From a virus (Duplodnaviria > Heunggongvirae > Uroviricota > Caudoviricetes): a DNA stretch of 45,329 nt. The notes under the pieces are model-generated. The model made no database searches, had not been told where the DNA came from, and worked only from the letters and a program-made list of their open reading frames with translations. The stretch is from the IMG/VR virus record IMGVR_UViG_2541047734_000008, positions 1 to 45,329 of that record; one strand, 5' to 3'. Below are positions 1 to 24,648 of the stretch, piece after piece (the stretch's first letter is position 1; each line of letters begins with the position of its first letter). The translations under genes and the position numbers were made by a program.

Positions 1-996
1 CTGTGTGGTCAGGTACGCATTACAGGTGATGCGCGGCTCCGTGCCGCCAAAGCCGTCCGGCACTGACTGGTCGCAGTACTGGCCGATGACATACAGCGCC
101 CATTTATCCACATCCGCCGCACCAAGACGTTTCCCCATGCCGTAGCGCGGATGGGTCAGCATATCCCACAGACACCAGGCCATGTTGTTGCTGTATGCTG
201 GCTTAAACGTTCCGTCCCAGATACCGCTGTATTGCCGCGTCTGCGGGTTATAATTCGACGGCACCTGCAGAATACGCCCGCGCAGATGATAATTACGGCT
301 CACCTGCTGGCTGCCGAACTGCTCCGAATCCACCTGCACGCCGACCAGTGCCGTGTTCGGGTAGCACTGTTTCACATCGATGATTTCGGTGTATGACGAC
401 CAGAGCGTTTTGTTCTGCAGCTGGTCTGTGGTGCTGTCCGGCGTCATCCTGCGCATCCGTATATTGAACGGGCGCGGCGGCAGGTTATCCACCACCACCG
501 AGGCCAGATACTGCGAGGTGGTTTTGCCCTTAATGGTGATGTCTTTTTCCGTCACCCAGCCACCGTTACGCTGTATCTGAACCAGCAGACGGACTTCCGA
601 CGGATTCCGGTCCCCCTTTGAGGTGGTTTCCACCAGTGCCTGCACACCGAAGGTAAAGCGCAGACGGTCGATGTTTGCCGACGTGATGGTGCGGGTGATC
701 GGCGTGTCGTATTTCACTTCCGTACCCAGCACCGTCTCGGAGCCGGAGGATTCAAAACCCTCAGGCGGTGTCTGCTCCTGCTCACCTGCCCGGAACACCA
801 CCGTGACGCCGGAGATATTGGTATTCCCCTCACTGTCCAGCACCGGCGTACTGTTCAGCAGCACGCTTTTTAATCCATCCACCGGACCTTCAACCGGCCC
901 TTCGCTGATGGCATCGATCACACTCAGCAGTTGCGTGGATTTCAGGTTGTCCTTCGCTTCGCGCGGGGTATGCCCCTTACTGCTGCCTTTACCCAT
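1..996 (-). CDS. Host-specificity / central tail fibre protein J, N-terminal part (gene continues beyond window start)
   Basis: Minus-strand ATG at 996 preceded by GGAG; translation MGKGSSKGHTPREAKDNLKSTQLLSVIDAISEGP... stays open to position 1; lambda J-like N-terminus; lies after I in lambda order. Confidence 0.8.
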   Translation of the reverse strand, partial: MGKGSSKGHTPREAKDNLKSTQLLSVIDAISEGPVEGPVDGLKSVLLNSTPVLDSEGNTNISGVTVVFRAGEQEQTPPEGFESSGSETVLGTEVKYDTPITRTITSANIDRLRFTFGVQALVETTSKGDRNPSEVRLLVQIQRNGGWVTEKDITIKGKTTSQYLASVVVDNLPPRPFNIRMRRMTPDSTTDQLQNKTLWSSYTEIIDVKQCYPNTALVGVQVDSEQFGSQQVSRNYHLRGRILQVPSNYNPQTRQYSGIWDGTFKPAYSNNMAWCLWDMLTHPRYGMGKRLGAADVDKWALYVIGQYCDQSVPDGFGGTEPRITCNAYLTTQ

Positions 997-1056
997 TCGT
1001 CACGCTCCATAAACGACAAAACCGCCCGCAGGCGGTTTCACATAAAATGTTTTGCA

Positions 1057-1704
1057 TCAGCGACCAATCACCACAACCTGACCACCATCCCCTTCGTCTG
1101 CCGTGCTGATCTCCTGAGAGACCACCCGCGACCCCACGCGCATTTCACCGTACAGAACGGGCAGAACATTGCCCTGGGCAACCATGTTATCCAGTGAGGA
1201 GAAATAGGTGTTCTGTTTGCCGTTATCTGTACTGGCTGCCGTGGGCGTCCTGGCTTTCGGTGCCAGCATCTGCGCCACTCCGCCCAGGATCATACTGGCC
1301 CCTGCCGCATACATGCCCGATACAGTCGCGGCACCCAGCCAGCCCACAGGGTTCCACCATGCCACCGCAATCAGCGCCGCCCCCAGCACTGCCTGAAAAA
1401 TACCGCCACTTTTGGCACCCGCCAGACGCGGTACGATGTGGATCACGGCACCATTTTTCAGCGGCTCATTCAGACGGGCTGATAATTCGTTTTCACCTGT
1501 ATCACGCCCGGCAATCCGTATCTGATACCAGCCCTCATTCAGTTTCTGACGAAACGCCGGGAGCTGTGTGACCAGTGCCCGGATGGCTTCAGCCCCCGTT
1601 TTCACACGAAGGTCGATACGGCGACCAAATCGTTGCAAATCCCCGTAAAGGCAGATGCGTGCCATGCCCGGTGACGCCAGAGGGAGTGTGTGCGTCGCTG
1701 CCAT
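1057..1704 (-). CDS. Tail tip assembly protein I
   Basis: 215 aa ORF MAATHTLPLASPGMARICLYGDLQRFGRRIDL..., lambda gpI-like; overlaps the 3' end of K as in lambda. Confidence 0.85.
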   Translation of the reverse strand: MAATHTLPLASPGMARICLYGDLQRFGRRIDLRVKTGAEAIRALVTQLPAFRQKLNEGWYQIRIAGRDTGENELSARLNEPLKNGAVIHIVPRLAGAKSGGIFQAVLGAALIAVAWWNPVGWLGAATVSGMYAAGASMILGGVAQMLAPKARTPTAASTDNGKQNTYFSSLDNMVAQGNVLPVLYGEMRVGSRVVSQEISTADEGDGGQVVVIGR

Positions 1705-2225
1705 TTGTCGGTGTACCTCTCTCGTTTACTCAGTTGTTCAGGAATATGGTGCAGCAGCTCGCCGTCGCCACAGTAAATGGCGGCATGATTCGGCACCGAT
1801 GAACCAAAACAGCACAGCAGCACGTCGCCAGGCTGCGCCTCTGTCAGTGGGACACGGTAAAAACCCGTTGCCTCCATATTGTCAAGATAGAGATTCTGGC
1901 CGTGACGCCACCAGTCATCCCCGCGATGAAAATCCGGCATCTCAATTCCCGCCAGATGGTAAGCGTCCCGGAACAGCGTGTAACAGTCCGTCACCCCGTG
2001 CTCAAAGCGCCGCCCGGTGAGATGCGGCACACAGCGGAATTTATGAATCGCCCCCCGGCAGACCAGCCACCACGGCAAATCACTCTGCACCTGCAGCCGC
2101 CGGTCAGCCTCACTCAGCCAGGGCAGACCACCGGGGTGGCTGTGGACCAGCGCCACAATCTCACCCTGCATCTCTGCCCGCAGCCAGTCCTCCGGCGACA
2201 TCCGGAAATACGCCTCCGGCTCACC

Positions 2226-2233
2226 GGAGATAT
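2226..2233. repeat. 8-bp target-site duplication GGAGATAT (left copy) of the IS66-family element
   Basis: GGAGATAT directly abuts the IS terminus at 2226..2233 and again at 4766..4773. Confidence 0.8.
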
Positions 2234-2318
2234 GTAAGCGTAAACTGACCGCCGTATGTAGCCATCAGACGAGAATTGGTAACTTAGACGCCCATCTGAT
2301 ATAGACGGACATCTAAGT

Positions 2319-2744
2319 ATGGAATTACAGGACTGGCGAAAAGAACCTCGTAAAAACTATTCGAATGAATTCAAACTTCGTATGGTGGAACTGGCATCAC
2401 AACCTGGAGCTTGTGTTGCACAGATTGCACGTGAAAATGGCGTCAATGATAATGTTATTTTCAAATGGCTCAGGCTCTGGCAGAACGAAGGGCGTGTTTC
2501 GCGGCGTCTTCCGGTAACGACCTCTTCTGACACTGGCGTTGAATTATTACCTGTAGAAATAACGCCGGATGAGCAGAAAGAACCTGTGGCGGCCATTGCG
2601 CCGTCTTTATCCACTTCCACTCAGACCAGAGTCAGTGCCAGTTCCTGCAAGGTGGAATTCCGTCACGGTAACATGACGCTGGAAAATCCATCGCCAGAGC
2701 TGCTCACGGTGTTGATCCGTGAACTGACCGGGAGGGGAAGATGA
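2319..2744 (+). CDS. IS66-family accessory protein TnpA (orf1)
   Basis: 141 aa, MELQDWRKEPRKNYSNEFKLRMVELASQPGACVAQIARENGV... HTH-type; first ORF of an IS66 triad. Confidence 0.8.
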   Translation: MELQDWRKEPRKNYSNEFKLRMVELASQPGACVAQIARENGVNDNVIFKWLRLWQNEGRVSRRLPVTTSSDTGVELLPVEITPDEQKEPVAAIAPSLSTSTQTRVSASSCKVEFRHGNMTLENPSPELLTVLIRELTGRGR

Positions 2745-3091
2745 TCTCACTCCCATCAGGTACCCGTATCTGGCTCGTTGCCGGCGTTACCGATATGCGT
2801 AAATCCTTCAACGGACTGGGAGAACAGGTACAACATGTGCTGAATGATAATCCCTTCTCCGGTCACCTGTTTATCTTCCGTGGCCGACGGGGTGACACCG
2901 TCAAAATTCTTTGGGCTGATGCTGATGGTCTGTGCCTGTTCACCAAACGCCTGGAGGAAGGCCAGTTTATCTGGCCTGCGGTACGTGACGGCAAGGTATC
3001 CATTACCCGCTCGCAACTGGCAATGCTCCTCGATAAGCTGGACTGGCGTCAGCCAAAAACATCCAGCCGTAACTCACTGACAATGTTGTAA
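2741..3091 (+). CDS. IS66-family TnpB (orf2)
   Basis: 116 aa, overlaps orf1 stop (ATGA); MISLPSGTRIWLVAGVTDMRKSFNGL... typical IS66 Orf2. Confidence 0.8.
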   Translation: MISLPSGTRIWLVAGVTDMRKSFNGLGEQVQHVLNDNPFSGHLFIFRGRRGDTVKILWADADGLCLFTKRLEEGQFIWPAVRDGKVSITRSQLAMLLDKLDWRQPKTSSRNSLTML

Positions 3092-3121
3092 AAAACTCCT
3101 GACCGCATTATAAAAACGGTC

Positions 3122-4735
3122 ATGAGTCAGAAATACCTCATTCGCATCGCAGAGCTGGAAAGGTTGCTCTCTGAGCAGGCTGAAGCCCTCCGTCAGAAAG
3201 ACCAGCAACTGAGTCTGGTTGAAGAGACGGAAGCCTTCCTGCGCTCTGCACTGACACGTGCCGAAGAAAAGATCGAAGAAGATGAACGGGAAATAGAACA
3301 TCTGCGGGCTCAGATAGAAAAACTGCGCCGGATGCTGTTCGGTACCCGTTCTGAAAAACTGCGTCGTGAAGTTGAACTGGCTGAGGCTCTGCTGAAACAA
3401 CGTGAACAGGACAGCGATCGTTACAGTGGGCGGGAAGACGATCCTCAGGTTCCCCGCCAGTTGCGACAGTCGCGCCATCGTCGTCCGTTACCGGCACACC
3501 TTCCCCGTGAAATACACCGCCTGGAGCCAGAAGAAAGCTGTTGCCCGGAGTGTGGCGGTGAGCTGGATTATCTGGGGGAAGTCAGCGCTGAACAGCTGGA
3601 ACTGGTGAGCAGTGCCCTGAAAGTGATCCGCACAGAACGGGTAAAAAAAGCCTGTACAAAATGTGACTGTATTGTTGAAGCACCGGCGCCGTCCCGCCCG
3701 ATAGAGCGTGGTATCGCGGGCCCCGGATTACTTGCCCGCGTGTTAACGGGAAAATACTGCGAACATCTGCCACTGTATCGTCAGAGTGAAATCTTTGCCC
3801 GCCAGGGTGTCGAACTGAGCCGGGCCTTACTCTCCAACTGGGTTGACGCGTGCTGCCAGTTAATGACACCGGTGAATGATGCCCTGTACCGTTATGTAAT
3901 GAACACCCGCAAGGTTCACACTGATGACACACCGGTAAAGGTACTGGCACCGGGTCAGAAAAAGGCGAAAACAGGGCGTATCTGGACGTATGTCCGGGAT
4001 GATCGCAATGTGGGTTCGTCATCTCCTCCAGCGGTCTGGTTCGCGTACTCGCCGAACCGGCAGGGGAAACACCCGGAGCAACACCTCCGCCCCTTCCGGG
4101 GTATCCTGCAGGCGGATGCGTTCACAGGTTACGACAGGTTGTTCAGTGCAGAACGTGAAGGTGGTGCACTGACAGAAGTTGCGTGCTGGGCCCATGCCCG
4201 GCGAAAAATCCACGATGTATACATCAGCAGCAAAAGTGCGACGGCAGAAGAAGCCCTGAAGCGAATCAGTGAACTGTACGCCATCGAGGATGAAATACGG
4301 GGATTACCGGAGTCAGAGCGTCTTGCCGTCAGGCAGCAGCGAAGCAAAGTGTTACTGACGTCGCTGCATGAATGGATGGTGGAGAAGAATGGTACGCTGT
4401 CGAAAAAATCCAGACTGGGCGAAGCGTTCAGCTATGTACTGAATCAGTGGGATGCCCTCTGTTATTACAGTGATGACGGTCTGGCGGAGGCGGATAATAA
4501 TGCTGCGGAAAGAGCGCTTCGTGCAGTCTGTCTCGGAAAGAAAAACTTTATGTTCTTTGGCAGCGATCACGGCGGCGAGCGTGGAGCACTGTTGTACGGG
4601 CTGATCGGCACCTGCCGTCTGAACGGTATCGATCCGGAAGCGTATCTGCGCCATATCCTGAGCGTACTGCCGGAATGGCCTTCCAACCGAGTTGATGAAC
4701 TCCTGCCATGGAACGTAGTACTCACCAATAAATAA
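3122..4735 (+). CDS. IS66-family transposase (orf3)
   Basis: 537 aa with N-terminal coiled-coil/leucine-zipper, CxxC...CxxC zinc motif and DDE-type core; third ORF of the triad. Confidence 0.85.
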   Translation: MSQKYLIRIAELERLLSEQAEALRQKDQQLSLVEETEAFLRSALTRAEEKIEEDEREIEHLRAQIEKLRRMLFGTRSEKLRREVELAEALLKQREQDSDRYSGREDDPQVPRQLRQSRHRRPLPAHLPREIHRLEPEESCCPECGGELDYLGEVSAEQLELVSSALKVIRTERVKKACTKCDCIVEAPAPSRPIERGIAGPGLLARVLTGKYCEHLPLYRQSEIFARQGVELSRALLSNWVDACCQLMTPVNDALYRYVMNTRKVHTDDTPVKVLAPGQKKAKTGRIWTYVRDDRNVGSSSPPAVWFAYSPNRQGKHPEQHLRPFRGILQADAFTGYDRLFSAEREGGALTEVACWAHARRKIHDVYISSKSATAEEALKRISELYAIEDEIRGLPESERLAVRQQRSKVLLTSLHEWMVEKNGTLSKKSRLGEAFSYVLNQWDALCYYSDDGLAEADNNAAERALRAVCLGKKNFMFFGSDHGGERGALLYGLIGTCRLNGIDPEAYLRHILSVLPEWPSNRVDELLPWNVVLTNK

Positions 4736-4765
4736 GCGTCAATACGGTGCTCCGTTGACGCTTAC

Positions 4766-4773
4766 GGAGATAT
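4766..4773. repeat. 8-bp target-site duplication GGAGATAT (right copy)
   Basis: Identical 8-mer immediately outside the right IS terminus. Confidence 0.8.
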
Positions 4774-4890
4774 TCACGCAGGGAAAATATCTTTCCCCCT
4801 CCGGCGTTCTCACCACGAAGCCGCACGACTCTGCTGGCGCACATCGCCGGGCGTGCGCCAGAATCGCTGATTCTGTCTCTGTCATGGGAT

Positions 4891-5589
4891 TTACTGCGAA
4901 AGTTTGTTAATGGAAAGGAAGCCGCCAAAGTTGCCGACGTTATTGCGAAACTTACAGCCGCTCAGGCATTTGCTGCATTTATCCTTCGTGATATCGGACG
5001 TCGGCTGGTCATATTCATCCGCGACAGCCGGACCGTGATAACCGCACTCATCGCCGCGATAGGTCCAGGTGCAGGTGTTGGCCAGCATGATACGCCCCGG
5101 AAAAACAGCGCCATCCGTTTCCGTCGGCGTGGACAGTACAAAGGAGGCACTCACCGCGCTCAGTTCGCTGCACTGCTCGATGCGCCAGCGGCTGATCACC
5201 TCCTGCTCCGGATCGGCGTCTCTGTTTCCGTTGACGAAGTTCACCGCATCCAGAAAACGGGCGTAAACCTTACGCCTGACCACCGTTCCGCCGACCAGAC
5301 TCTGCAGATCTTCCGCCATCCCGGTGACCATGCCGTACAGATTAGAGACTTTAAGCGTTGGCCTTGCACTGGCTCCTTTGCCGTTCATCTCAAATCCGCT
5401 TCCCTGAATGGGATAAGCCTGATACTGCCGCCCCTGCCAGGTGACTGGTTCACCTTTTTCGTTCTGCTCATTACAGAAGAAATAACGATCTCCGCCGACC
5501 TCTGTCAGATCAATTTCCCAGAGCACGACCAGCGCGGATTGCTCCGTTTTAGTGCACTCATTGAGTGTTTCCTGCTGTATATCCTGCAT
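4891..5589 (-). CDS. Minor tail protein L
   Basis: 232 aa, MQDIQQETLNECTKTEQSALVVLWEIDLTEVGG..., lambda gpL-like; start overlaps M stop (ATGA). Confidence 0.85.
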   Translation of the reverse strand: MQDIQQETLNECTKTEQSALVVLWEIDLTEVGGDRYFFCNEQNEKGEPVTWQGRQYQAYPIQGSGFEMNGKGASARPTLKVSNLYGMVTGMAEDLQSLVGGTVVRRKVYARFLDAVNFVNGNRDADPEQEVISRWRIEQCSELSAVSASFVLSTPTETDGAVFPGRIMLANTCTWTYRGDECGYHGPAVADEYDQPTSDITKDKCSKCLSGCKFRNNVGNFGGFLSINKLSQ

Positions 5590-5945
5590 CAGTGAGTGAC
5601 CTCTTCAAAGGTACAGTTAAAATCGGTATACATGGCATTATCCGAAATGCTCCACTCCCTGCAGACAACCCGGACAGTCCTGTTGTGTTTTGGCGGACGC
5701 CACAAAAAAGCACGAATCCCGGCATGACGGGATAAAAAACTGTCCAGCGCGGCACGGGAATATTCATCTGTGACACGAAATACCGGTTTAAACGTTTTCA
5801 GATCCGCATTCAGACCACCAGCCCGTCGCTGTTCATATCCGTCACCAAACTTTACCGTAATAACTGATGGCTTTCGTGTCGTCTCCATCCCCTCACGGGG
5901 GATCCAGTTAAAAACTTCAGGCTCAGGCACTGTACAATCCTCCAT
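5589..5945 (-). CDS. Minor tail protein M
   Basis: Lambda gpM-like (..KFGDGYEQRRAGGLNADLKTF..); start placed at the second Met (MEDCTVPE..) to limit overlap with H; the ORF track starts at 5975. Confidence 0.7.
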   Translation of the reverse strand: MEDCTVPEPEVFNWIPREGMETTRKPSVITVKFGDGYEQRRAGGLNADLKTFKPVFRVTDEYSRAALDSFLSRHAGIRAFLWRPPKHNRTVRVVCREWSISDNAMYTDFNCTFEEVTH

Positions 5946-8900
5946 CCCGACGCGATGACTGCATAATTGACACAACCCTGCTGTCGATCAGATCCACCAG
6001 TCCCCTGGCTGAGCGCGCATCTATCTCGCCATTGCTCCCTTGATTCTGAATGCTGATGTGATACACGGGAGAATAAACAAATCCACCGCCACCATTCACA
6101 TTTCCAATGGCCCTGACCCCAAGAGAGCCGTCCGCTGCCCGTGTCAGTGGCATGATTGCTTCAGGCCCGGCCTCGCCCATCAACCCGGCACCTTTCGCAA
6201 AAGCAAAATACGTCGGTGTATCCACAATAGTGTTACTGTAAGCACTCAGATTTGCCGATGTGTAAACACCACCTTTTGCGTTTGCCACTGCACCGGAAAG
6301 CCAGTCGCCGACTGTACCAAGCCATCCTCCGGCACCGGACATGCTTTTGGAAAGTGACTTCAGCCCGTTAACGATGGCAGCGTTCATCAGAATTTTTGAA
6401 ACTTCCTGGAGAATTGAACTCCCCCAGTTTCTCCAGTCCACAACATTTCCGGCCAGTGCATCGGAAATATTTGATACCAGCCCGTCCATCGTGGAAACGA
6501 CAGCATCTGCCGCCTGTGAAGCATAATCGGTGGCACTGTCTGCCCAGTTGGTCAGTCCCTCCTGGAGTCCGGCATTCCAGTTATTACGTAAAGCATCGGC
6601 CTTTGCATAATAATTCTGCTGATCGCTGAGACGCTCTTCCAGATATTTTTTATTCAGTTCTTTCTCCTGTTTCCACAGGGCTTCTTCAATTTCTCCGGCC
6701 TGATACTGTCTCAGCAGCTCGTTATTTTTCTGCTCAAACGCCTGCCGGATACTCCACATTTCCTGGAGTCGTTCACGCATCCGTGAGCCTTCACCATATC
6801 CCAACAACTGCGCTTCGTCAGATGCCCGGGCACTGGCATTACTGTCCGCCAGACTGCTCTCATACGCAGCAAGCTGCTCACGAATCTTTTTCTGGTCGAT
6901 GAGTGCTGCATTCTGCAAAAGCGTTTTTTTCTGCGCTTCTGACAGGGTTGATAATTCGCCCTGACTGACCTGATATTTCATCTTAGCCAGTTCAGTATTC
7001 TGCCCTGCCAGTGCTATTTGTTCTTTTTGCTGTTTAATCAGCCGTTTATAAATATCTTCTGTTTTTTCCGCTTCGGTCTTTTTATGCGCTTTGGGTTTAT
7101 TTGCCTGGTTATTTCGCCAGGCATCCAGTGAGTTATTGATATAATTCTGCCTGGCTGTCTGATACGCCTCTCCCACAAAGCCGAGATCATCCGCAGCATA
7201 ACCCAAGCGGGCACGCTCACGGGCTTCCCCCTTCAGGCGGGACAGAGCCAGTTCGCGCTCGCTGTTATTCAGTGCAGTCTGCTGTTTATCATCCAGGGTT
7301 GCCTGTGGTAGCCGTAACGGTACATTCACCAGCCCCTGTCGCTGCTGAAGTAATTCATTACCGAGCCCGAGAAGGCGATTAAACTCGGTATGCTGCCCAT
7401 TCATGATCAACAGGGACTGATACGCTTTGTTTTGTTCCGCGGCCTGTTGACGGATCAACGCCACCCGTCGCTCCTCCAGCCCGGCAAGCACATCCTGAAT
7501 GGATTGCGCTTTGCCCTGCATTTGTGTGAGACGGGACTGTTCAACTGCCAGTTGATTTGTTGCTTCTGCAAGCCCTTCTGTGACAGTTTTTACCGACGTC
7601 ATGTGGTTAATCATAAAACCGTTATCGGTTGTCCAGCCCGGGTTTGCCAGCACATACTGATAGCCAGCAATTTTTTCCTGTAAGGATTTAATCTTACTTT
7701 TCTGCTCGTCAATTAACCTGTTTTGCTCATCAAGTGCCTGCCGCGTCATTTCCTCATTATCTGACGCTTCAGGAAGCGACATTGCCGACGTTTTCTGGCG
7801 AATTTCGTCGATTGTTGCGGCATACTGGCGTGCAGATTCTCTGGCCTGCTCCTGATTCTGATACATCGTGTACCAGGCCGTCGCCCCCAGCATGACGAGT
7901 CCCGGCACACCACCAACCAACCCCAGCGCACCACTTAACAGACGACTCCCCACTGACGTGACAGTATTCAGCGTTGTCTGTGCCGCTGTTCTGGCCGCAA
8001 TATTACGGGTAAGTGACGCCTGGGCAGCTGTCAGCTTCGCTTCTGCTGCGGCCTGCCTTTCGGTACCGCGAGCAGCAACAACCGCCTGTTGCGCACGATA
8101 AACCGCCGCACGCGCCCTGGCGGTTGCTATCTGTGTCCCCCGAAGTTGCGCTTCAGCAAGAGCCACTTCGTTTCTGGCTGCAGTAATTAATCCGGCAGTT
8201 GCAGATCCAGCAGACGACGCCATATTGCCAAAATATCGGGCTACCCCGACGGCAACCAGTGCGCCAGCTGCAGCAGCCACGGTATCAATATTGTCTGCAA
8301 CACCATTCAACACCCCGGTGAGTGTCTTTGTCACTCCGCTTGCCTCGTTCGCACCACCAACCCAGGCCATAAAGGCGTTTTCAACTTTGGTTGCAGAGGA
8401 TGAAACAGTATCAGGCATTGCTGCATATTCATCACGCAACGCCCCAAGCTGACTAATCAGTGCAGGAACAACCTTATCGGCGGTCAGTTTTCCGTTATCC
8501 GCCATGGCCTTCAGATCCTTACGGGCAACACCCATTCCCGCAGCCAGCGCACGAATAACACGATCGCCGTTCTCATTCACAGAGTTAAATTCTTCACCGC
8601 GCAGCACTCCCTGCGCCAGTGCCTGACTGAACTGCGTGATCACCGAACTGGCTTCTGCTGTACTGGCACCGGATAATTTCAGGCCCGTGGAGATCGCCTC
8701 GGTGACTTTCAGTACCTCCTCAGAACTGTAGCCATACTCCCGCATGGAAGCTGCAGAGCGGGCAAAAAGGCTGGCGTTATCAGAAAACGCCGTTCCCGTT
8801 CTCTGGCTGATTGCCATTAATTCACGTTGTGATACCTGAAAATCATCACTGGACTGTGAAGCCTGCTTCAGACGGGCATTTACTGAATTCCACTCATCGG

Positions 8901-9168
8901 CGAGAGAAATAAGATGACCGGTAGCAAAAGCTCCGGCAAATGCCCCCGCCATATTCAGTGCCGAAGATTTAGCTGTATTTATCTGATCCGTCACTTCTGC
9001 CAGTGCACGCCGCATTTCACGGGATGCAGCAGCGGACTGCCGGCCTCCGTTCTGCATGGTACGGTAGTAATCCTGCCCCATACGCGAAGCCCGGGAGATC
9101 TCTGACTGGAATGACCGGGAATTTGCCGAGATTTTAATAATCAGTTCACGTAATGTCGCCACACTCAT
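5923..9168 (-). CDS. Tail tape measure protein (gpH-like)
   Basis: 1081 aa, Ala/Gln-rich coiled-coil centre, positioned between GT and M. Confidence 0.85.
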   Translation of the reverse strand: MSVATLRELIIKISANSRSFQSEISRASRMGQDYYRTMQNGGRQSAAASREMRRALAEVTDQINTAKSSALNMAGAFAGAFATGHLISLADEWNSVNARLKQASQSSDDFQVSQRELMAISQRTGTAFSDNASLFARSAASMREYGYSSEEVLKVTEAISTGLKLSGASTAEASSVITQFSQALAQGVLRGEEFNSVNENGDRVIRALAAGMGVARKDLKAMADNGKLTADKVVPALISQLGALRDEYAAMPDTVSSSATKVENAFMAWVGGANEASGVTKTLTGVLNGVADNIDTVAAAAGALVAVGVARYFGNMASSAGSATAGLITAARNEVALAEAQLRGTQIATARARAAVYRAQQAVVAARGTERQAAAEAKLTAAQASLTRNIAARTAAQTTLNTVTSVGSRLLSGALGLVGGVPGLVMLGATAWYTMYQNQEQARESARQYAATIDEIRQKTSAMSLPEASDNEEMTRQALDEQNRLIDEQKSKIKSLQEKIAGYQYVLANPGWTTDNGFMINHMTSVKTVTEGLAEATNQLAVEQSRLTQMQGKAQSIQDVLAGLEERRVALIRQQAAEQNKAYQSLLIMNGQHTEFNRLLGLGNELLQQRQGLVNVPLRLPQATLDDKQQTALNNSERELALSRLKGEARERARLGYAADDLGFVGEAYQTARQNYINNSLDAWRNNQANKPKAHKKTEAEKTEDIYKRLIKQQKEQIALAGQNTELAKMKYQVSQGELSTLSEAQKKTLLQNAALIDQKKIREQLAAYESSLADSNASARASDEAQLLGYGEGSRMRERLQEMWSIRQAFEQKNNELLRQYQAGEIEEALWKQEKELNKKYLEERLSDQQNYYAKADALRNNWNAGLQEGLTNWADSATDYASQAADAVVSTMDGLVSNISDALAGNVVDWRNWGSSILQEVSKILMNAAIVNGLKSLSKSMSGAGGWLGTVGDWLSGAVANAKGGVYTSANLSAYSNTIVDTPTYFAFAKGAGLMGEAGPEAIMPLTRAADGSLGVRAIGNVNGGGGFVYSPVYHISIQNQGSNGEIDARSARGLVDLIDSRVVSIMQSSRRDGGLYSA

Positions 9169-9176
9169 TCTCCGGA

Positions 9177-9199
9177 CGAAAAAAACCGCCGAAGCGGTT
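9177..9199 (-). terminator. Candidate intrinsic terminator between T and H
   Basis: Minus strand AACCGC-TTCG-GCGGTT hairpin followed by T7, then GGAGA and the H start codon. Confidence 0.45.
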
Positions 9200-9207
9200 A
9201 TGTTGAC

Positions 9208-9896
9208 TCACTGAGACACTATTAAAAGCGCGTTTTCCAGTCCGGCAAATGGATCTGAGACGCCTTCTGTCTGCTCTTGTTCCCACTGAAGAAGCGCATC
9301 ATTCAGTGGGACTTTGACACCCTGCGCACCGTAAACCGCAGAAACTATCTGGGCAGCCCGGATATCAGCCCGCTCGTCACCCAGCGGGCTGAACCTGTCA
9401 AATTCTGCCCACATCATGATTTCTGATGCGGACATTTCCCGGCGTAACTCTGACAATGTGCGCCCGATCCTGAGCGCCAGCATCATCAGAAAACGCATCC
9501 CCGGAAGCTCTACTTTTTTTTAACCTCGCCGGCATCACTGATCAGTTCCAGAGACTGCCGAAGAAGCCGCGCATGCACCGGGCCATACACGGCAATCACC
9601 TGTTCACGATCATCCTCTGAAAATACAGGTTGCAGTCCGGTATCACACAGAACATCAATGAACAGTTCAACATCTGCCTCCAGATTTCGGCGGGCGCGCT
9701 CCGCAACGGATAACGGTGTCTCATCATCTTTTGCTTTAACGATCTCCTGCCAGCGCAACCAGGCTTCTGCAGAAGGTTCCCGTAATACAACCGTTGCCCC
9801 TTCCCATTCAGGCACATCAACAGTTTTATGGCGAAACCCCGACATCGTTGCCAGTGCCAGATTGCGGATATTTTTAGTCATCACATCTATCCTCAT
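9208..9896 (-). CDS. Tail assembly chaperone G and -1 frameshift product GT (G = 9510..9896; T extension 9208 to about 9520)
   Basis: G (128 aa) ends ..GEVKKK* on an A8G run; the 96 aa ORF 9208..9498 lies in the -1 frame and is open across the slippery run; position upstream of tape measure. Confidence 0.75.
9513..9521 (-). other. Programmed -1 ribosomal frameshift slippery site (minus strand A AAA AAG) for G to GT
   Basis: Eight T on plus strand at 9514..9521 (eight A on the coding strand) immediately before the G stop codon TAG; the -1 frame continues into the T ORF. Confidence 0.65.
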
Positions 9897-10600
9897 TAAC
9901 TGACGGTAACAGTGCAGGAAGTGGAGGTCACCTTGTTAACAGGGCTTGCTGAATCAGAAATCTCGCAGGTATACGCACCGGCATCACCTGATGCTGCTGA
10001 TGCCTTACTGAATGTTGCCGCCGTCTGTCCGGAAACAGGAGAACTACCTTTCTTCCAGACATAAGAATAAGGCGGCACACCACCGGCAGCCTCAACCACC
10101 ATTTCGAGTTTCGCTCCGGCAGAAACCTGCAGCGTGCTGTTTAAATCGACCTTCACTTTCAGCGGCTCTGTCGTCAGCACAGGTTTACCTTTCAGGCGCA
10201 GGGAAAACGTTGCAGCCACAACACCATTAGTTCCTGCAGACCAGGTATGCTGACGCACCTCTGCCATAAAGGTAAATCCGTTGCCTGACGGAAAAATAAC
10301 TTTAAAGCCATACGTGGTGTCATTGTCATAGGCACTGCGCAACGCGTTCTGGGCAGCATTGAGGTAAAAGTTGCCTGACATGGAAATCTCTGACGCGGCA
10401 CCAAGGCCGTTAATATTTTCCTGCTCAACAGAACACAGCGTGGTGACATCAATATCCTGCTTTTGTCCTGCGGTAAACTGCACCTCTTTGATTGTACAGC
10501 TCAGGCCAAGATAGCTGGCAGAATCCAGGGTTTCTGCTGTTACCGGTGCAGACGAAATCATAATTTTCGTCAGTTGCGAACGCTCAAAATTAGAGGACAT
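9896..10600 (-). CDS. Major tail protein V with C-terminal Ig-like (Big_2-type) domain
   Basis: Start at MSSNFERSQ.. (ATG 10600) preceded by AGGAGA; C-terminal ..GGVPPYSYVWKKGSSPVSGQTAATF..AGAYTCEISD.. Ig-like fold signature. Confidence 0.8.
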   Translation of the reverse strand: MSSNFERSQLTKIMISSAPVTAETLDSASYLGLSCTIKEVQFTAGQKQDIDVTTLCSVEQENINGLGAASEISMSGNFYLNAAQNALRSAYDNDTTYGFKVIFPSGNGFTFMAEVRQHTWSAGTNGVVAATFSLRLKGKPVLTTEPLKVKVDLNSTLQVSAGAKLEMVVEAAGGVPPYSYVWKKGSSPVSGQTAATFSKASAASGDAGAYTCEISDSASPVNKVTSTSCTVTVS

Positions 10601-10610
10601 ACTCGTCTCC

Positions 10611-10638
10611 TGAAAATAAAAAACCCGCCAGCGGCGGG
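10611..10638 (-). terminator. Candidate intrinsic terminator or attenuator upstream of major tail gene
   Basis: Minus strand CCCGCCGCTGGCGGG hairpin followed by TTTTTTATTTT, immediately before the V RBS. Confidence 0.45.
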
Positions 10639-10659
10639 TGGGTAAAATCATTAACGACC

Positions 10660-11004
10660 TCAGGCTATTACCTGAAATTCAAGCGTGGCTCTGCTCAGAC
10701 GGGAATCAGGATCATAACCCTGAGTTTTAGAAATAACGGAGGGTGCAAGTTGCCTTACCGCATCAAGCGCCTGCTCACGGATATCATCTGCGTCATCAGG
10801 TACTGTTGCCCAGACATCGATCTGCACGGTAATTCTGGATTCAGCCTGACCATCAAGCACATCAGACGCAGTGTCAGACACCACAGAAAATACCAGCCAT
10901 GGCGGAGATACCGCAGGCTTTCCCTCCGTCAGCGGGACCACATAAGGATAAACCTGTCCTCCGGCCAGTTGAGACAGCAGGGAATACAGTGTGGTCTCTC
11001 TCAT
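10660..11004 (-). CDS. Tail completion / tail terminator-like protein (DUF3168-like)
   Basis: 114 aa; position between the gp10-family gene and the major tail gene in an HK97-type connector module. Confidence 0.55.
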   Translation of the reverse strand: MRETTLYSLLSQLAGGQVYPYVVPLTEGKPAVSPPWLVFSVVSDTASDVLDGQAESRITVQIDVWATVPDDADDIREQALDAVRQLAPSVISKTQGYDPDSRLSRATLEFQVIA

Positions 11005-11450
11005 TTACTTAAGACCTCATCAATAGCCTGATTCATTCGCTGTATGGCAATCTGTGCTGCCAGTTCCTCTGTCGTATCGAAAGCCGGGCGAATGAACGGA
11101 TGCGCGGGCATGTTTATCGTTCCCAGCTCCACAAAGCGCCAGTAAAACGCATTTCGGGGATCACTGGCTTTCATGCTGTTATCACTGTTTCCGGTTCGCA
11201 GGTTCCGTCCACGAATGTGGACACCCGAGATAATTTCCCCCCGACGCTTTGAACGCTGAGTGAGAACAACCACATTTTTCTTCAGTTTCCCGGTTCGCTC
11301 CGGCGCACGTTCAACAACTGCATCCCGCATAACTTCAGCACCGGCACGGGTGGCATCGCGCAGTACCTTATTGTTTTCTGCCCTGCTGAGCGTCTCCAGA
11401 TCCCGTGCAATATCCGCCAGACCTGAAAAATCAAGACTGAAATCCATCAC
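11001..11450 (-). CDS. HK97 gp10-family tail component
   Basis: 149 aa; conserved position in the connector module; overlapping start/stop with neighbours. Confidence 0.55.
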   Translation of the reverse strand: MMDFSLDFSGLADIARDLETLSRAENNKVLRDATRAGAEVMRDAVVERAPERTGKLKKNVVVLTQRSKRRGEIISGVHIRGRNLRTGNSDNSMKASDPRNAFYWRFVELGTINMPAHPFIRPAFDTTEELAAQIAIQRMNQAIDEVLSK

Positions 11451-11785
11451 ACATTCCCCTTCTGAGAACAGAGTATCTCAAGCCGTGTGGCACGAGCATC
11501 CGGTATCGGCGGACCGTCTATACTCAGAATCGCGCCTTTGAATGCACCAGTCAGCACTTTCAGACATGAAGTTGCTGTTACATCTCGCCGGAATCTCATC
11601 CAGACCCTCACTGTAGCCTGAGCAGTTTCTGCGCCTCCGGATATTCTCTCCCTGCCACTGATCCCCTTAACTTCTGCCCATATGGTTGCCCCCTCCGTCA
11701 TTGTTTCCACAGGGTGCCCTGACGGAGACCGAACGGTGGTGGCATTCAGAATAACCACACGATCACGTAATCTTCCTGCCTGCAT
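11447..11785 (-). CDS. Head closure / head-tail adaptor protein
   Basis: 112 aa; position downstream of the gp6-like connector. Confidence 0.55.
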   Translation of the reverse strand: MQAGRLRDRVVILNATTVRSPSGHPVETMTEGATIWAEVKGISGRERISGGAETAQATVRVWMRFRRDVTATSCLKVLTGAFKGAILSIDGPPIPDARATRLEILCSQKGNV

Positions 11786-11793
11786 GAGTCCTC

Positions 11794-12099
11794 CTATGTT
11801 CCGGGATGAAATCGATACATCCGCAGTCCGGTATAGAAAAAATCAGGCACTGCATCCTGCATTTCCCTGTTCTCGTACCAGTAGCCAACCAGTTGCATAA
11901 GACGCAGTTTTATCAGAGGTGTTATTACAAGCCCGGTCGTATCCTGCTCAGAAACAGTTTCATCGTAAAGCGTCCGGTTTAAAAACTTTTCAGCCTCTTC
12001 CCTGGCAGCAGCCAGATACATCATAAGAAGAGAATTCTCCTGTTCATTGTCATCATCAATCCGGCACTGAACACGAAGCTCTTCCAGAGTGGGCATCAT
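11794..12099 (-). CDS. Head-tail connector protein (gp6-like)
   Basis: 101 aa, MMPTLEELRVQCRIDDDNEQENSLLMMYLAAAREEAE... gp6-type. Confidence 0.6.
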   Translation of the reverse strand: MMPTLEELRVQCRIDDDNEQENSLLMMYLAAAREEAEKFLNRTLYDETVSEQDTTGLVITPLIKLRLMQLVGYWYENREMQDAVPDFFYTGLRMYRFHPGT

Positions 12100-12110
12100 T
12101 TGGGCAACCT

Positions 12111-12299
12111 CTATGAATGCTGTTTTTTAGACTTATCAGCCCCCCGCGCAACAGGTGTTCTCTTATCAGAGACAATCCCAGCTGCAGTGGCAATTTCGCG
12201 TACCCGTTCGGGTAATTCTTTATCTTCATACTCACCGGCCCGAATAATCTCAACACGCATACCGTCCGGTGACCATTTCAGATCTTGTTTCAGGATCAT
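12111..12299 (-). CDS. Small hypothetical protein between capsid and connector genes
   Basis: 62 aa ORF in operon orientation; no recognisable family. Confidence 0.35.
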   Translation of the reverse strand: MILKQDLKWSPDGMRVEIIRAGEYEDKELPERVREIATAAGIVSDKRTPVARGADKSKKQHS

Positions 12300-12350
12300 G
12301 ATTCTTTCACCTGTCAGAACAGGGGGCGCACTTCTGCGCCCCCTGAATGA

Positions 12351-13556
12351 TTACGCCGCTGCAATCTTCAGCAGTTTGATGGCCTGCGAATCGACCAGCA
12401 TGCCGCCGGTGCGCTTGGTGGTATAAAAACCGACAAACGGTTTATTGGTGTACGGGTCACGCAGAATGCGGGTACCGATACGGTCAACGATGGTGTAACC
12501 CCGTTTGAAGTTACCAAATGCAATGGCTTTCGCATCAGCGGCAATATCCGGCATCTGTTCGTTTTCAGCGATAGCGTAACCCGCCAGAGAGGACGGCTGC
12601 CCCAGCTCCAGCCCAGGACGCCACAGATAGTTACCCTCACTGTCTTTCAGCAGACGGATGGCAAACAGACTGTTGTTGTTCATCATGAACTTCGCGCCAG
12701 TGCGGTGTGCCTTACGCAGCGTGTAAATCAGTTTGATAATGGCATCTGCGGTCACCGCCGTCGCTTCGCCGGATACAATATGCTGAAGTTTGCCGAACGC
12801 CCGGACCTTGTCTGTTTCATCCGTGGACTCATACGCCAGGAACCCTTTCGGCTTCTTGGTACCATCGCCGGTGGTAAAGGCAATTTCTTCCTGTTCGGCA
12901 AATTCGGTTGCCAGCTCGCTGTTGATCCATGCTTCCACGTTGAAAAAGGCATCATCCAGCATTTTCTGGGTGGCCTGCGGGTTACCGTAGATTTCCCCCA
13001 TGAAAGGTTCAATCAGGCCCAGTTTTGAGGTGGCAGTCTTGGAGCGCGCGTCAGTCTCGCCAACCCATCCGGAAGCCGTGCCGCCCAGATTCACCAGTTT
13101 TTTGTAGTCGGAACCACCAACGCTGATCACCGTGGCTTCCTGGCGCATCACCACTTCATCTTTCAGCAGGGTGAGAATGTTGCGATCCAGTGCTTCCGGC
13201 ACGGCATAGCCGCCGTCTTCATCGGTGCCCACCTGTAATGCCTTGCGCTCCAGATCGCGCAGACCGTCTTCACGGCCTTTACGCAGGAAGCCCACAAACG
13301 CTTCTTTATGCTCGGTGGCCAGTTTATTTTGCGCACCACCTGCCGGACGTTTCAGCTCAAGCAGCTCTTTTTCAAGATCGCTTTTGAGGTTTTCCAGCTC
13401 GCTGAGTTTCCCGTTCAGGGTTTCCACCTGCCCGGCAAGTTTGCCTTTTTCCTGCTCAATCGCATCCACGCGCTTGTCGTTCTTTGCTTTGAAGTCGTCA
13501 AACTTCTGCTGCAGCTCCTGCGCGACCTGTTCGACATCTTTAATATCAACCGCCAT
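12351..13556 (-). CDS. Major capsid protein, HK97 family
   Basis: 401 aa; N-terminal coiled-coil delta domain then HK97 fold core (..GFLAYESTDETDKVRAFGKLQ..GYTIVDRIGTR..). Confidence 0.9.
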   Translation of the reverse strand: MAVDIKDVEQVAQELQQKFDDFKAKNDKRVDAIEQEKGKLAGQVETLNGKLSELENLKSDLEKELLELKRPAGGAQNKLATEHKEAFVGFLRKGREDGLRDLERKALQVGTDEDGGYAVPEALDRNILTLLKDEVVMRQEATVISVGGSDYKKLVNLGGTASGWVGETDARSKTATSKLGLIEPFMGEIYGNPQATQKMLDDAFFNVEAWINSELATEFAEQEEIAFTTGDGTKKPKGFLAYESTDETDKVRAFGKLQHIVSGEATAVTADAIIKLIYTLRKAHRTGAKFMMNNNSLFAIRLLKDSEGNYLWRPGLELGQPSSLAGYAIAENEQMPDIAADAKAIAFGNFKRGYTIVDRIGTRILRDPYTNKPFVGFYTTKRTGGMLVDSQAIKLLKIAAA

Positions 13557-13570
13557 CGTATTTCTCCTGA

Positions 13571-14257
13571 TTAGAAGTTTAGATTTTTCAGTGCATTCAG
13601 TGCAGAGCCCACATCCTCAGCGTCGCGCAGGGACAGTGCGCCATAGCCCCCGGCCATGAATGCTTTGGCCTGGGTACGGGAGAGTCCGACATCACGCAGG
13701 ACTCTTTCGATTTTTTTCTGTTCGGGGATTTCCCCGCGGGCCAGTGCGTTCTTGACGTCGCTGATCCGCGCCTCGTCGTTAGACGGGAACGTCACCAGGC
13801 TGACTTCCCAGAGGTCGATTTCTTTCAGCAGAAAGGCTTCTTTGCTCCGGTCGTATTCCCAGTCTTTCAGGACGTACCCAATAGAAAGGCCGGTTAACGA
13901 ACCGGCCTTCATGTGTGCATGTGCGCGTTTTGCGAGGGGATCATCATCAATAAGCAACCGTCCCCTGACGTAAAGCCCGACATCGTCTTCCTTCATTTCG
14001 GTGTAAACACCGATGGGTTCATCCATGCGGTGCTGCCAGAGCAGCGCAGGTAACGCTTTTCTGTCACTCCACGCCCGCAGGGAAGCAGCAAATGCCCCGG
14101 ACATCACCACATCATCGTGGCTGTCCTTTACACCAAAGACGGAGCCATACCCTTCAAACTCACCGGAGTCACTGACAGATTTCAGACTCAGCGGTACATC
14201 AAGACGTTGTTTCGTCTGCATTGGCGTTATCCTTCTGCTTACCGGCTTTACTGCCAT
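13571..14257 (-). CDS. Prohead protease (HK97 family)
   Basis: 228 aa (..GYGSVFGVKDSHDDVVMSGAF..); between portal and capsid. Confidence 0.85.
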   Translation of the reverse strand: MAVKPVSRRITPMQTKQRLDVPLSLKSVSDSGEFEGYGSVFGVKDSHDDVVMSGAFAASLRAWSDRKALPALLWQHRMDEPIGVYTEMKEDDVGLYVRGRLLIDDDPLAKRAHAHMKAGSLTGLSIGYVLKDWEYDRSKEAFLLKEIDLWEVSLVTFPSNDEARISDVKNALARGEIPEQKKIERVLRDVGLSRTQAKAFMAGGYGALSLRDAEDVGSALNALKNLNF

Positions 14258-15440
14258 CGGATGGTTTCGTGGTCATGTTCATCGGTGTGAGATAGACATC
14301 CCCACCGGGACGCGGATTCATATCTTCCAGGTCGCGGCAGTCATTGGGAGAGTAAATTCCCCAGTTGATCCCGGTGGCGTAGGCTTCAAAACGGGACTTC
14401 ATATCCCCGCGCAGTAACGCCCCGGCGTTAAATTTGGCGTAATAAACGCCCTGCTTACTTTTTCGTACCAGTCCGGTGTTGATCCGCTGTTCGATGCGGG
14501 TCAGATACGGCACCAGTGAATAGTTGATAAATCCCAGCCCCAGCTCTTCGATATTGTTGAAGGTGGCGCGATCGGTGTTCTGCACCATGTGCAACGGCAC
14601 CCGGAACAGACGACAGATTTCTTCAAGCTGAAACTTGCGGGTTTCCAGGAACTGGCTGTCCTCGGCGTTCAGCGCCATCGACTTCCAGTCCAGCCCCATC
14701 TCAAGGATCATCGGGCGGTGAGCATTGCCAAGCCCGGTGTGACGCTCCTCAAAATCTTTCTTCAGGCGCTCATAAGCCTGATCTGACAGCGTCTGCTCTG
14801 TACGCAACACACCGGACGTCACCGCACCATTGCTGAACAGTCTGGCCCCGTGCTCTTCGGTCGCTGCCGCCAGCGATATTGCCTCGCGGGCATAGGCGAT
14901 GGGATTCAGCCCCACCAGACCGTCCAGCGTCAGCGTGCGCACATGCCAGATATCTTCCTGGCTCAGTACATCCGTGGAACCGTCCGGGAATGTGACCTGA
15001 TAGACCGGCTCCCAGCGACTGTTAAGCTTCGGTACCACACAACCGGGATCGACGGGCAGCAGTTCAGCCACTTCGCCAAATGCTTTCACTTTGTAGGCGT
15101 AAAAGTTCCCCCTCAGGCACAGACAGGTGACCACCAGCTCCCAGAACTCCTGCGGCGTCATATAGCCATTGGGATGCGTGGAGATCAGCTTATGCAGACG
15201 TTCGCCGGTGGCCCTCTGTTTCAGGCTGCCGTTCAGATGATACAGATTGCAGGGCAACATCCCGACCGACTCTGCCAGCACTCTGACGCAGGAAAAAACC
15301 GCCGTCAGTCGCATGGCCCGCTGACTGCTGATCTGCTTTCCGGTATAGGTGTCGTAAGACAACCCGATGGCATCCGCCAGCTCTGCTGGCGTGGTCACCG
15401 GCACGTCACTTTTTCGTTGAAATAATCCCGAAAAGAACAC
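14199..15440 (-). CDS. Portal protein (HK97 family)
   Basis: 413 aa; upstream of protease, downstream of terminase. Confidence 0.85.
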   Translation of the reverse strand: MFFSGLFQRKSDVPVTTPAELADAIGLSYDTYTGKQISSQRAMRLTAVFSCVRVLAESVGMLPCNLYHLNGSLKQRATGERLHKLISTHPNGYMTPQEFWELVVTCLCLRGNFYAYKVKAFGEVAELLPVDPGCVVPKLNSRWEPVYQVTFPDGSTDVLSQEDIWHVRTLTLDGLVGLNPIAYAREAISLAAATEEHGARLFSNGAVTSGVLRTEQTLSDQAYERLKKDFEERHTGLGNAHRPMILEMGLDWKSMALNAEDSQFLETRKFQLEEICRLFRVPLHMVQNTDRATFNNIEELGLGFINYSLVPYLTRIEQRINTGLVRKSKQGVYYAKFNAGALLRGDMKSRFEAYATGINWGIYSPNDCRDLEDMNPRPGGDVYLTPMNMTTKPSDGSKAGKQKDNANADETTS

Positions 15441-15622
15441 TATTTACCTCCGCCGACAGACGGCTGTGTACGGTCGAGATATCGCGCCACCAGCCACGAC
15501 CAGAACAGGCACAGCACCCCGGCAACAACAAAACCCGCCGGGGGATAAATCAGCCAGGCACCATACGCCAGCAAAAGCGCACCCAGCACGCCCACCAGTG
15601 GCGCGAGAATTATCAGAAACAT
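15440..15622 (-). CDS. Small predicted membrane protein
   Basis: 60 aa, hydrophobic ([24 protein letters not shown]..); between terL and portal. Confidence 0.35.
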
Positions 15623-15633
15623 AATGACCTCGG

Positions 15634-16370: not shown

Positions 16371-16651
16371 GAATATTTCAAGTTTTTTAAAATCACCTGT
16401 ATATCAATCATTTAACATGAAAAAACAGTCTTTATAAATCATCGAGCAATACACAGCGCAATACACGTATCTGTATTGTTTTAATGCTGATACACACCGT
16501 TTTTTGATACAGTGATTCGACCTACCATCGCGAAGCATTTTTTATTTCTTGTGTGTAACAATCTGACGAGGTGAGCACTCAAAGAGATAAGAGGCAGTAG
16601 AAATTTCGATCCCCCCTGAATGCAATTTTTCGTATATATATACAAAACAGT

Positions 16652-16810: not shown

Positions 16811-16885
16811 ATCCCTGAAAGTGGGTGCCGATAATACTGAAAATTTATTCCATTAAATGAGCATTATCCTCTCTCATCCATTCCG

Positions 16886-21122: not shown

Positions 21123-21123
21123 A

Positions 21124-21684: not shown

Positions 21685-21733
21685 CGGTGTACTCCATAAA
21701 GCTGAAAAAGGAGGCCGAAGCCCCCTTTGCTCA

Positions 21734-23934: not shown

Positions 23935-23970
23935 GCCTTCCCCTGTAATTACTCTGTTCGCTGTTGTGAA

Positions 23971-24644: not shown

Positions 24645-24648
24645 TCCT

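Follow-up and report, generated by a model that had tools for sequence, protein, structure and literature searches.

The window, by which we mean the whole 45,329-nucleotide stretch of viral DNA analysed, carries part of a lambda-type tail module on its minus strand, in the order tape-measure gene, ORF 5589-5975, L, K and I, with K interrupted by an insertion sequence (IS). This agrees with the tail-tip gene block H-M-L-K-I-J, ORF 5589-5975 being placed as M by position. L (4891-5589, minus strand; Pfam Phage_tail_L, E = 7e-100) is intact and lies directly upstream of K, and the tail assembly gene I (1057-1704, minus strand; Pfam Lambda_tail_I) is intact downstream and overlaps the 3' end of K. 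In the annotation of Escherichia coli FCI1, J comes next after I; in the window, J is only partly included. K itself is present as two minus-strand fragments. The 5' fragment (4766-4885) holds codons 1-40 (MTETES...CVNIS) and is read as a 48-aa ORF (4739-4885) in which these codons are followed by eight codons of the IS end and a stop. The 3' fragment (1602-2233) runs from codon 41 to codon 247, with the 8-bp duplicate in addition, and includes a 199-aa ORF starting at Met49 (1602-2201).

Between the fragments, positions 2234-4765 comprise a complete 2,532-bp IS on the plus strand, directly abutted on both sides by the 8-bp direct repeat GGAGATAT (left copy 2226-2233; right copy 4766-4773). 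A previous sequence-only reading had proposed an IS66-type element of this length flanked by 8-bp repeats, and its description proved correct to the base; its interval 2226-4773 spans both repeat copies, the IS proper being 2234-4765, and needs no substantive correction. GGAGATAT occurs only three times on the plus strand and once on the minus strand of the window, and two given positions would share an 8-mer by chance with p = 4^-8 (~1.5e-5). The IS ends form an imperfect 24-nt inverted repeat (GTAAGCGTAAACTG... / ...CGTTGACGCTTAC) that is 83% complementary, with the left copy GTAAGCGTAAACTGACCGCCGTAT at 2234-2257 and the right copy ATACGGTGCTCCGTTGACGCTTAC at 4742-4765 (both listed on the plus strand). 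They begin with GTAAGCG, a signature of the IS66 family and a start common to ISEc22.

The three genes of the element are consecutive, intact and encoded on the plus strand, and each passes its family models. The gene tnpA (2319-2744) encodes a 141-aa IS66 accessory protein (Pfam HTH_Tnp_1; NCBIfam IS66_ISRel24_TnpA, 83 bits against a cut-off of 74), and its end is overlapped for 4 nt (ATGA) by the start of tnpB (2741-3091), which encodes the 116-aa IS66 Orf2 (Pfam TnpB_IS66, E = 1e-36; NCBIfam IS66_TnpB, 121 bits). The 537-aa DDE transposase encoded by tnpC (3122-4735) contains the domains LZ_Tnp_IS66, zf-IS66, DDE_Tnp_IS66 (PF03050, E = 9e-98) and DDE_Tnp_IS66_C and scores 452 bits against NCBIfam transpos_IS66 (NF033517; cut-off 180). 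GC skew is positive across the IS, which fits IS genes lying on the strand opposite to the tail genes.

The element is 100% identical over 2,532 nt to many E. coli copies. We took its name, ISEc23, from the RefSeq annotation of identical copies ('IS66-like element ISEc23 family transposase'; the ISfinder name as given by NCBI PGAP). It shares with the named element its length, tnpA-tnpB-tnpC layout, GTAAGCG ends and 8-bp duplication, and differs in location only. ISEc23 is a well-known mobile element of E. coli, present over at least 80% of its length in 2,489 of 5,426 E. coli genomes, and its insertion in K is an ordinary gene knockout. There is one copy in the window, and from its sequence it is apparently active.

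Restored K and its empty site

Removal in silico of the IS together with one repeat copy (2234-4773) yields one uninterrupted 744-bp, 247-codon minus-strand ORF whose ATG at 4885 lies 5 nt past the L stop codon, bearing out the expectation of the sequence-only reading that a continuous K would begin right after L. The alignment to lambda gpK that it had called for gave 233 of 247 residues identical (94%; the reference being the full ORF of lambda imm21), including 46 of the first 48. Pfam assigns Prok-JAB to residues 4-98 of the 247-aa product and NLPC_P60 to residues 111-224. Matches to K of isolated plaque-forming phages are full length at 95-99% identity, and the protein is covered to 80% or more in 1,721 phage records. 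Its MPN/JAB plus NlpC/P60 architecture, the L-K-I-J gene order, the 94% identity and the full-length phage matches identify the restored ORF as K. Lambda gpK shares with it the domain architecture, the gene order and a start 5 nt past L; the two differ in that the window gene is broken after codon 40, and that the lambda reference record annotates 199 aa only. For annotators, the two K fragments constitute one pseudogene.

E. coli FCI1 carries a near-identical prophage without the IS and with a single GGAGATAT. Its sequence is 100% identical to window positions 1-2233 and 99.95% identical to positions 4765-16377, and its intact 744-bp K is identical in DNA sequence to the restored K. The FCI1 locus is a true empty site. 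As this isogenic prophage has one copy of the 8-bp repeat, the two copies in the window represent a genuine target-site duplication, as had been supposed. The identity of the IS to other copies and of its flanks to the empty-site prophage suggests that the insertion in K is evolutionarily recent.

IS copies are a well-known cause of assembly errors, and the 5,426 complete RefSeq genomes searched do not include the source genome. One alternative is that a repeated IS was wrongly joined into K during assembly. Both junctions, however, carry the 8-bp sequence as a perfect duplication, whereas the isogenic empty site has it only once; a mis-join would not create this, and the identical two junctions are present in an independent complete genome. 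We regard an artefact of this kind as extremely improbable.

Consequences of the insertion for tail assembly

We are highly confident in an explanation in which transposition of ISEc23 into K of an HK97-head, lambda-tail prophage abolished tail assembly. A staggered cut at GGAGATAT followed by repair would have produced the 8-bp duplication, with the IS genes placed antiparallel to the late operon. K is thereby cut after codon 40, within the N-terminal MPN/JAB domain, and is left as a 48-aa stub and a 3' part that lacks a promoter. With 2.5 kb of antisense IS DNA separating the late promoter from the downstream genes, expression of I and J would probably be lowered as well. As the lambda tail tip cannot be built without gpK, functional tails would be absent unless K, and perhaps also I and J, were supplied in trans, in line with the sequence-only reading. 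Loss of tail assembly is very likely, given the requirement for gpK in lambda tail assembly (PMC12617516) and a break that falls in the MPN domain, which is conserved. gpK is absent from virions (PMC10721106). A consensus scan of the IS gave promoter and terminator counts no higher than in shuffled sequence and no strong terminator in the K direction, so the polar effect on I is one that we infer.

The 3' fragment raises a second possibility, that K remains functional since the 199-aa protein from Met49 is its real product and is still made downstream of the IS. ORF 1602-2201 is intact and has GGAGG 11 nt upstream of Met49, and its product corresponds to K as annotated in the lambda reference record (NP_040598 in NC_001416; 187 of 199 residues identical, 94%), so that some residual K activity is conceivable. 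The 199-aa annotation in lambda, however, stems from a single G missing in J02459/NC_001416. Among the 40 matches listed for a 206-nt query across this point, 27 other records, several lambda and lambda-hybrid genomes among them, align it over 207 nt and so have one base more; OM418625.1, the one record that was read directly, has that G as its additional base, which makes K a continuous 247-aa ORF. The 1,721 phage records likewise extend over at least 80% of the 247-aa form, Met49 falls in the middle of what Pfam treats as a single MPN/JAB domain, and transcription would have to traverse 2.5 kb of antisense IS in which the consensus scan found no convincing outward promoter. Rescue by the 199-aa ORF was rejected once the missing G had been found, and we think it very unlikely. 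The one-base gap in the lambda reference sequence has spread a truncated annotation of K, at 199 aa instead of 247.

Transposition of ISEc23 into K is the preferred explanation. The insertion is apparently the sole irreversible lesion noticed in a prophage that otherwise looks complete, although J is cut by the window. Lambdoid prophages inactivated by IS elements are known in E. coli, for example in the defective prophage pools of O157 strains. As in those, one IS in a late gene makes an otherwise complete prophage defective; the present case differs in having an exact isogenic empty-site partner and a target struck independently by two members of one IS family. The prophage should be annotated as probably tail-defective, which by itself is of minor importance.

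Recurrent insertion at one site in lambdoid K genes

The same 8 bp are hit in other genomes. In strain 23CRST030, ISEc23 lies at the identical target with duplication and in the orientation of the window; that IS differs from the window IS at 6 nt, and the flanks diverge already 22 nt from the IS. At the identical target, ISEc23 was read directly in the opposite orientation in REF2, 1446 and an IMG/VR contig (L135), and strains EC17, 1447, AZ189 and AZ190 give the BLAST footprint expected of an opposite-orientation ISEc23. Junction scans of viral contigs gave L135 as their one true match; a junction match in contig L134 was a chance 19-mer in an unrelated context and was discarded. In strain 64.1, direct reading identified ISEc22 at GGAGATAT in K with duplication, and five more poultry strains show the same footprint in BLAST. 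ISEc22 belongs to the same family as ISEc23, has the same GTAAGCGT ends, and in strain 64.1 occupies the exact GGAGATAT in K, oriented like the window IS, yet it is another element, 2,454 bp long and with a different internal sequence. Close by, ISEc23 in AVS0343 is inserted 22 bp away with the duplication GAAAATAC (AVS0155 gives the same BLAST footprint), and JJ1886 retains a ~130-bp remnant at that second site.

In these cases the exact site was struck independently three times or more, probably five (ISEc23 in both orientations, and ISEc22), with one further ISEc23 insertion 22 bp away. They suggest a non-random process, in which either GGAGATAT in K is preferred by IS66-family transposases or insertions there are selected for immobilising the prophage. 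We lean slightly towards such a process, which would add to transposition of ISEc23 into K as the best explanation and not replace it.

Sequence preference was assessed from a scan for left IS ends in metagenome contigs (120 loci) and species genomes (5 loci), with a position table built from 77 non-redundant flanks. A strong target motif was rejected; the flanks show a weak consensus only, with an A/T-rich centre at positions -6 to -2, and reuse of the exact site is therefore not predicted by motif matching alone. Against a special status for K, none of the non-redundant ISEc23 sites from these metagenome and species-genome contigs is the K target, and the event is found in only ~13 of 5,426 genomes, so that the K site does not dominate among targets. 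Retention is better for insertions in prophage genes, which are neutral, and this inflates recurrence; IS66-type elements are found at other points of the tail module as well (H in strain 98208; the interval between J and I in 2013C-3181). We put the preference at 100-fold or more, a figure that depends on guesses at how many events were independent. As for a hairpin cue, the site overlaps a palindrome, CTCCGGctcaCCGGAG, which folds only modestly better than shuffled sequences (z = -2.1 and -2.5) and is missing from the AVS0343 allele.

Taking both sides together, we propose only tentatively that GGAGATAT, at codons 38-40 of lambdoid K, and ~30 bp around it form a genuine hot spot for IS66 transposases, a reading we place a little short of an even chance. 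To our knowledge, the IS66 family is not known for site-specific targeting, and a hot spot, if true, would therefore suggest that DNA sequence or structure holds a targeting cue not yet described. Our literature search, which was incomplete in coverage and is weak evidence, returned no papers dealing with the target specificity of ISEc23 or IS66, nor with a hot spot in K. That two family members reuse an exact target gives a concrete and testable way into how these poorly understood transposases choose their targets.

A satellite embedded in terL

The prophage terL is interrupted by an integrase-bearing satellite of 14.65 kb (14,649 bp; 16364-31019), flanked by the att core TTGGTAA at 16364 and 31013. 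Removal of the satellite at TTGGTAA yields a 585-aa TerL, the length annotated for the intact terL of FCI1. The satellite encodes an integrase, AlpA-like regulators, Bro-N and a replication module, and after these capsid, protease, portal, adaptor, HNH, TerS and TerL genes; it is without tail or lysis genes, and its size is within the 10-15 kb range of such elements. It is co-oriented with terL, a late gene of the helper. Capsid-forming PICIs were reportedly treated by Alqurainy et al. in 2023. From its gene content and position, the terL satellite is of an already described type, the helper-embedded or capsid-forming PICI. It resembles helper-embedded PICIs in gene content and in the absence of tail and lysis genes, and the published site A:Terminase_1:245 has the same in-gene orientation (Tommasini, Mageeney and Williams 2023; PMC10111431).

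The interruption of terL is probably reversible by excision. The satellite would, like its helper, depend on the tails disabled by the insertion in K; because it needs the helper's tails, one IS in K would immobilise the prophage and the capsid-forming satellite in its terL alike. Since the insertion in K is apparently the sole irreversible lesion and the terL satellite is of a described, excisable type, whether either of them can spread probably depends on the IS. Two smaller observations concern the satellite. A first guess at the att core, AAGTTTTTTA, did not restore the terL ORF and was abandoned for TTGGTAA, which does. The same satellite-in-terL arrangement is present in E. coli 042.

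An ISEc23 insertion in tail gene K

The genes flanking the insertion are all on the minus strand: a tape-measure protein gene (5923-9168), an ORF at the M position assigned by position alone (5589-5975), L (4891-5589; Phage_tail_L, E = 7e-100), the split gene K between L and I, I (1057-1704; Lambda_tail_I) and, after I, the start of J, the rest of which lies outside the window. The sequence-only reading had described a 2,532-bp IS66-type element with 8-bp direct repeats interrupting K, and both repeats, the element length and the IS66 genes are confirmed. Read directly, the left junction (2226-2233/2234) joins caccGGAGATAT to GTAAGCGTAAACTGACC and the right junction (4765/4766-4773) joins CCGTTGACGCTTAC to GGAGATATtcacg, with exactly 2,532 bp between the repeats and element termini that form a 24-nt inverted repeat (83% complementary). 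The 8-mer GGAGATAT has just four occurrences in the 45-kb window, both strands summed; the probability of two fixed 8-mers matching by chance is ~1.5e-5.

Three plus-strand ORFs make up the element: a tnpA-type ORF of 141 aa (2319-2744; HTH_Tnp_1, NCBIfam IS66 TnpA), a TnpB_IS66 ORF of 116 aa (2741-3091) that overlaps it by ATGA, and a 537-aa transposase ORF (3122-4735) with leucine-zipper, zinc-finger, DDE_Tnp_IS66 and IS66 C-terminal domains (NF033517, 452 bits). GC skew goes positive across the element, consistent with IS genes running opposite to the surrounding minus-strand operon. A megablast search of 5,426 complete E. coli genomes recovered chromosomal and plasmid copies 100% identical over the full 2,532 nt. 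Their RefSeq label is 'IS66-like element ISEc23 family transposase', accompanied by tnpA and tnpB, and by this identity the element is a complete ISEc23 with intact genes. In 2,489 of these genomes a copy spans 80% or more of the element, and the window has no second copy.

In silico deletion of 2234-4773 restores a single K ORF just past the L stop, as the sequence-only reading had anticipated; it has 247 codons, with its ATG at 4885, 5 nt beyond that stop. The restored protein carries Prok-JAB (residues 4-98) and NLPC_P60 (residues 111-224) domains, and is 95-99% identical over its full length to K of isolated lambdoid phages and 94% identical to lambda K as annotated (199 aa). The IS lies directly after codon 40; the duplicated ATATCTCC spans the end of codon 38 and the whole of codons 39-40 (N-I-S), and what is left of K is a 48-aa stub (ORF 4739-4885) and, on the 3' side, 207 codons.

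An empty site was found in E. coli FCI1 (NZ_CM172811.1), a genome located via the window's right-hand third; FCI1 has what is in essence this prophage beside tRNA-Ser and mtfA. Window positions 1-2233, 4765-16377 and 31013-45329 correspond to 3173-5405 (100% identity), 5397-17007 (99.95%) and 16994-31304 (99.92%) of the FCI1 locus (L136). FCI1 has a single GGAGATAT and an intact annotated K gene of 744 bp (WP_062872864.1), identical in DNA to restored K; this comparison proves the 8-bp repeat to be a target-site duplication and shows the insertion to be recent.

The lambda K annotation and tail assembly

Lambda reference K is annotated at 199 aa, from the residue that corresponds to Met49 of restored K, and the equivalent ORF (1602-2201, GGAGG upstream) persists downstream of the IS in the window. 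In the lambda reference, the 45 codons upstream of the annotated K start lie in a different frame. Comparison of the reference (NC_001416, 14134-14275) with OM418625.1 located a missing G. Among the 40 listed records, a further 27 matched a 206-nt query over 207 nt, and they include the lambda or lambda-hybrid genomes KT232076.1, LC730321.1 (48,503 bp), PV340536.1, OM418625-7 and DE3. Direct reading of one of them, OM418625.1, identified the additional base as G (GAGGCGTATTTCC versus GAGGC-TATTTCC in the reference). With this G, lambda K in OM418625.1 reads through as one 247-aa ORF that begins 5 nt after L. Aligning restored K to this gpK, a check proposed with the sequence-only reading, gave 233/247 identical residues over the full ORF, and 46/48 in the N-terminal stretch. 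On these records, the 199-aa lambda K is an artefact of the reference, in which one G is absent and the ORF is split, and we rejected rescue by the surviving 199-aa ORF as improbable, since lambda K is 247 aa once the G is present (OM418625.1).

With lambda K read as one continuous 247-aa ORF, the IS interrupts a genuine coding region, within a conserved domain. gpK is needed for lambda tail assembly (PMC12617516) and absent from virions (PMC10721106); with K cut in a conserved domain, we infer on good grounds that tail assembly is lost. Polarity may plausibly lower the expression of I and J, though no terminator or outward promoter stood out in a consensus scan of the IS.

The insertion of ISEc23 in K is real and was correctly interpreted at first reading. 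The case is ordinary: both the IS and the gene are known, and a public genome already contains an equivalent allele, annotated there as pseudogene fragments. Modest added interest lies in the exact-site recurrence, the corrected annotation of lambda K and the nesting of a satellite in its helper.

Recurrent insertion at the K target

The window's exact locus was not found among the 5,426 complete E. coli RefSeq genomes. Strain 23CRST030 carries ISEc23 in the window orientation at an identical GGAGATAT target, with an IS differing at 6 nt and flanks diverging already 22 nt and 67 nt from it. Because the window flanks are those of the empty FCI1 allele and the 23CRST030 flanks differ, the two insertions look like separate events. 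ISEc23 occupies the same site in the opposite orientation in REF2, 1446 and an IMG/VR contig (L135), all read directly; between REF2 and 1446 the flanks share 93.5% identity, and EC17, 1447, AZ189 and AZ190 show the same BLAST footprint. Strain 64.1 has a different IS66-family element there, the 2,454-bp ISEc22, with the same duplication, and five further poultry strains share its footprint. Across both ISEc23 orientations and ISEc22, the equivalents of window 2226-2233 are in loci L001, L005, L131, L133 and L135. Neither an orientation flip nor an IS replacement can arise by descent, so the same 8 bp must have been hit independently at least three times, and probably five. A second site 22 bp away (equivalent to window 2204-2211; L002, L132) holds ISEc23 with the duplication GAAAATAC in AVS0343, and AVS0155 has the same BLAST footprint.

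The target consensus for ISEc23 is weak (77 non-redundant flanks), and the K target is absent from the non-redundant ISEc23 sites of metagenome and species-genome contigs. We take the K site to be a genuine preferred target, though a minor one, with better retention of neutral prophage insertions as a confounder. A palindrome near the site was considered as a targeting cue and was not convincing. No published description of the recurrence was found in a literature search of incomplete coverage.

Other insertions were seen in related tail regions. ST131 strain JJ1886 (NC_022648.1) retains an ~130-bp ISEc23 remnant in K at the GAAAATAC site (3964-4093 of its locus, L132), comprising the left and right ends with the interior deleted; its prophage has a truncated tape-measure gene, with blaCTX-M-15 annotated just past it. 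Strain 98208 (L003) has ISEc23 in the tape-measure gene with the duplication ACAGTATC, and strain 2013C-3181 (L139) an ISEc23-like element between J and I. In a metagenome locus (L027), an ISEc23 right end adjoins the L-stop/K-start junction and lacks a duplication, which suggests a recombinant.

A satellite in terL and other prophage genes

The HK97-type terL of the prophage is split into an N-terminal part (30847-32040) and a C-terminal part (15634-16359), separated by 14,649 bp (16364-31019) bounded by a TTGGTAA att core at 16364 and 31013. With this stretch removed, TerL is restored at 585 aa, as long as the product of the uninterrupted terL annotated in FCI1. The satellite genes, all in terL orientation, encode an integrase, two AlpA-like regulators, a Bro-N protein and a repressor-like protein; a RepA/AAA_25 helicase, SSB and a ProQ/FinO protein; and a major capsid protein, prohead protease, portal, head-tail adaptor, HNH endonuclease, TerS and TerL, with no tail or lysis genes. 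The ProQ/FinO-domain gene (RNA-chaperone fold; 23392-23934, minus strand) adjoins the SSB gene. Relatives are found at this position in many genomes, E. coli 042 among them; that of 042 has a PerC-family regulator at roughly the ProQ/FinO position.

The satellite fits the helper-embedded PICIs (Tommasini et al. 2023, PMC10111431), possibly at A:Terminase_1:245, one of their integration sites (PMC10111431), and its gene set fits capsid-forming PICIs, which take only tails from the helper. In that model the terL interruption would be undone by excision, and K::ISEc23 therefore appears, from the overall gene layout, to be the sole irreversible lesion visible in the window, whose edge cuts J. K::ISEc23 would deny tails to helper and embedded satellite alike.

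Elsewhere in the prophage, four minus-strand tRNA genes (36018-36327) separate the Q antiterminator gene from the lysis genes: Gly-TCC, Thr-TGT, Lys-TTT and one with a CAT anticodon, called Met in the window and Ile in FCI1. Between the lysis and packaging genes, a GNAT acetyltransferase gene (33474-33959, plus strand) lies on the opposite strand; the early region encodes an epoxyqueuosine reductase QueH homologue (39464-40150, minus strand), and a YdaS/YdaT-like pair (41936-42626, minus strand) lies near the immunity region.
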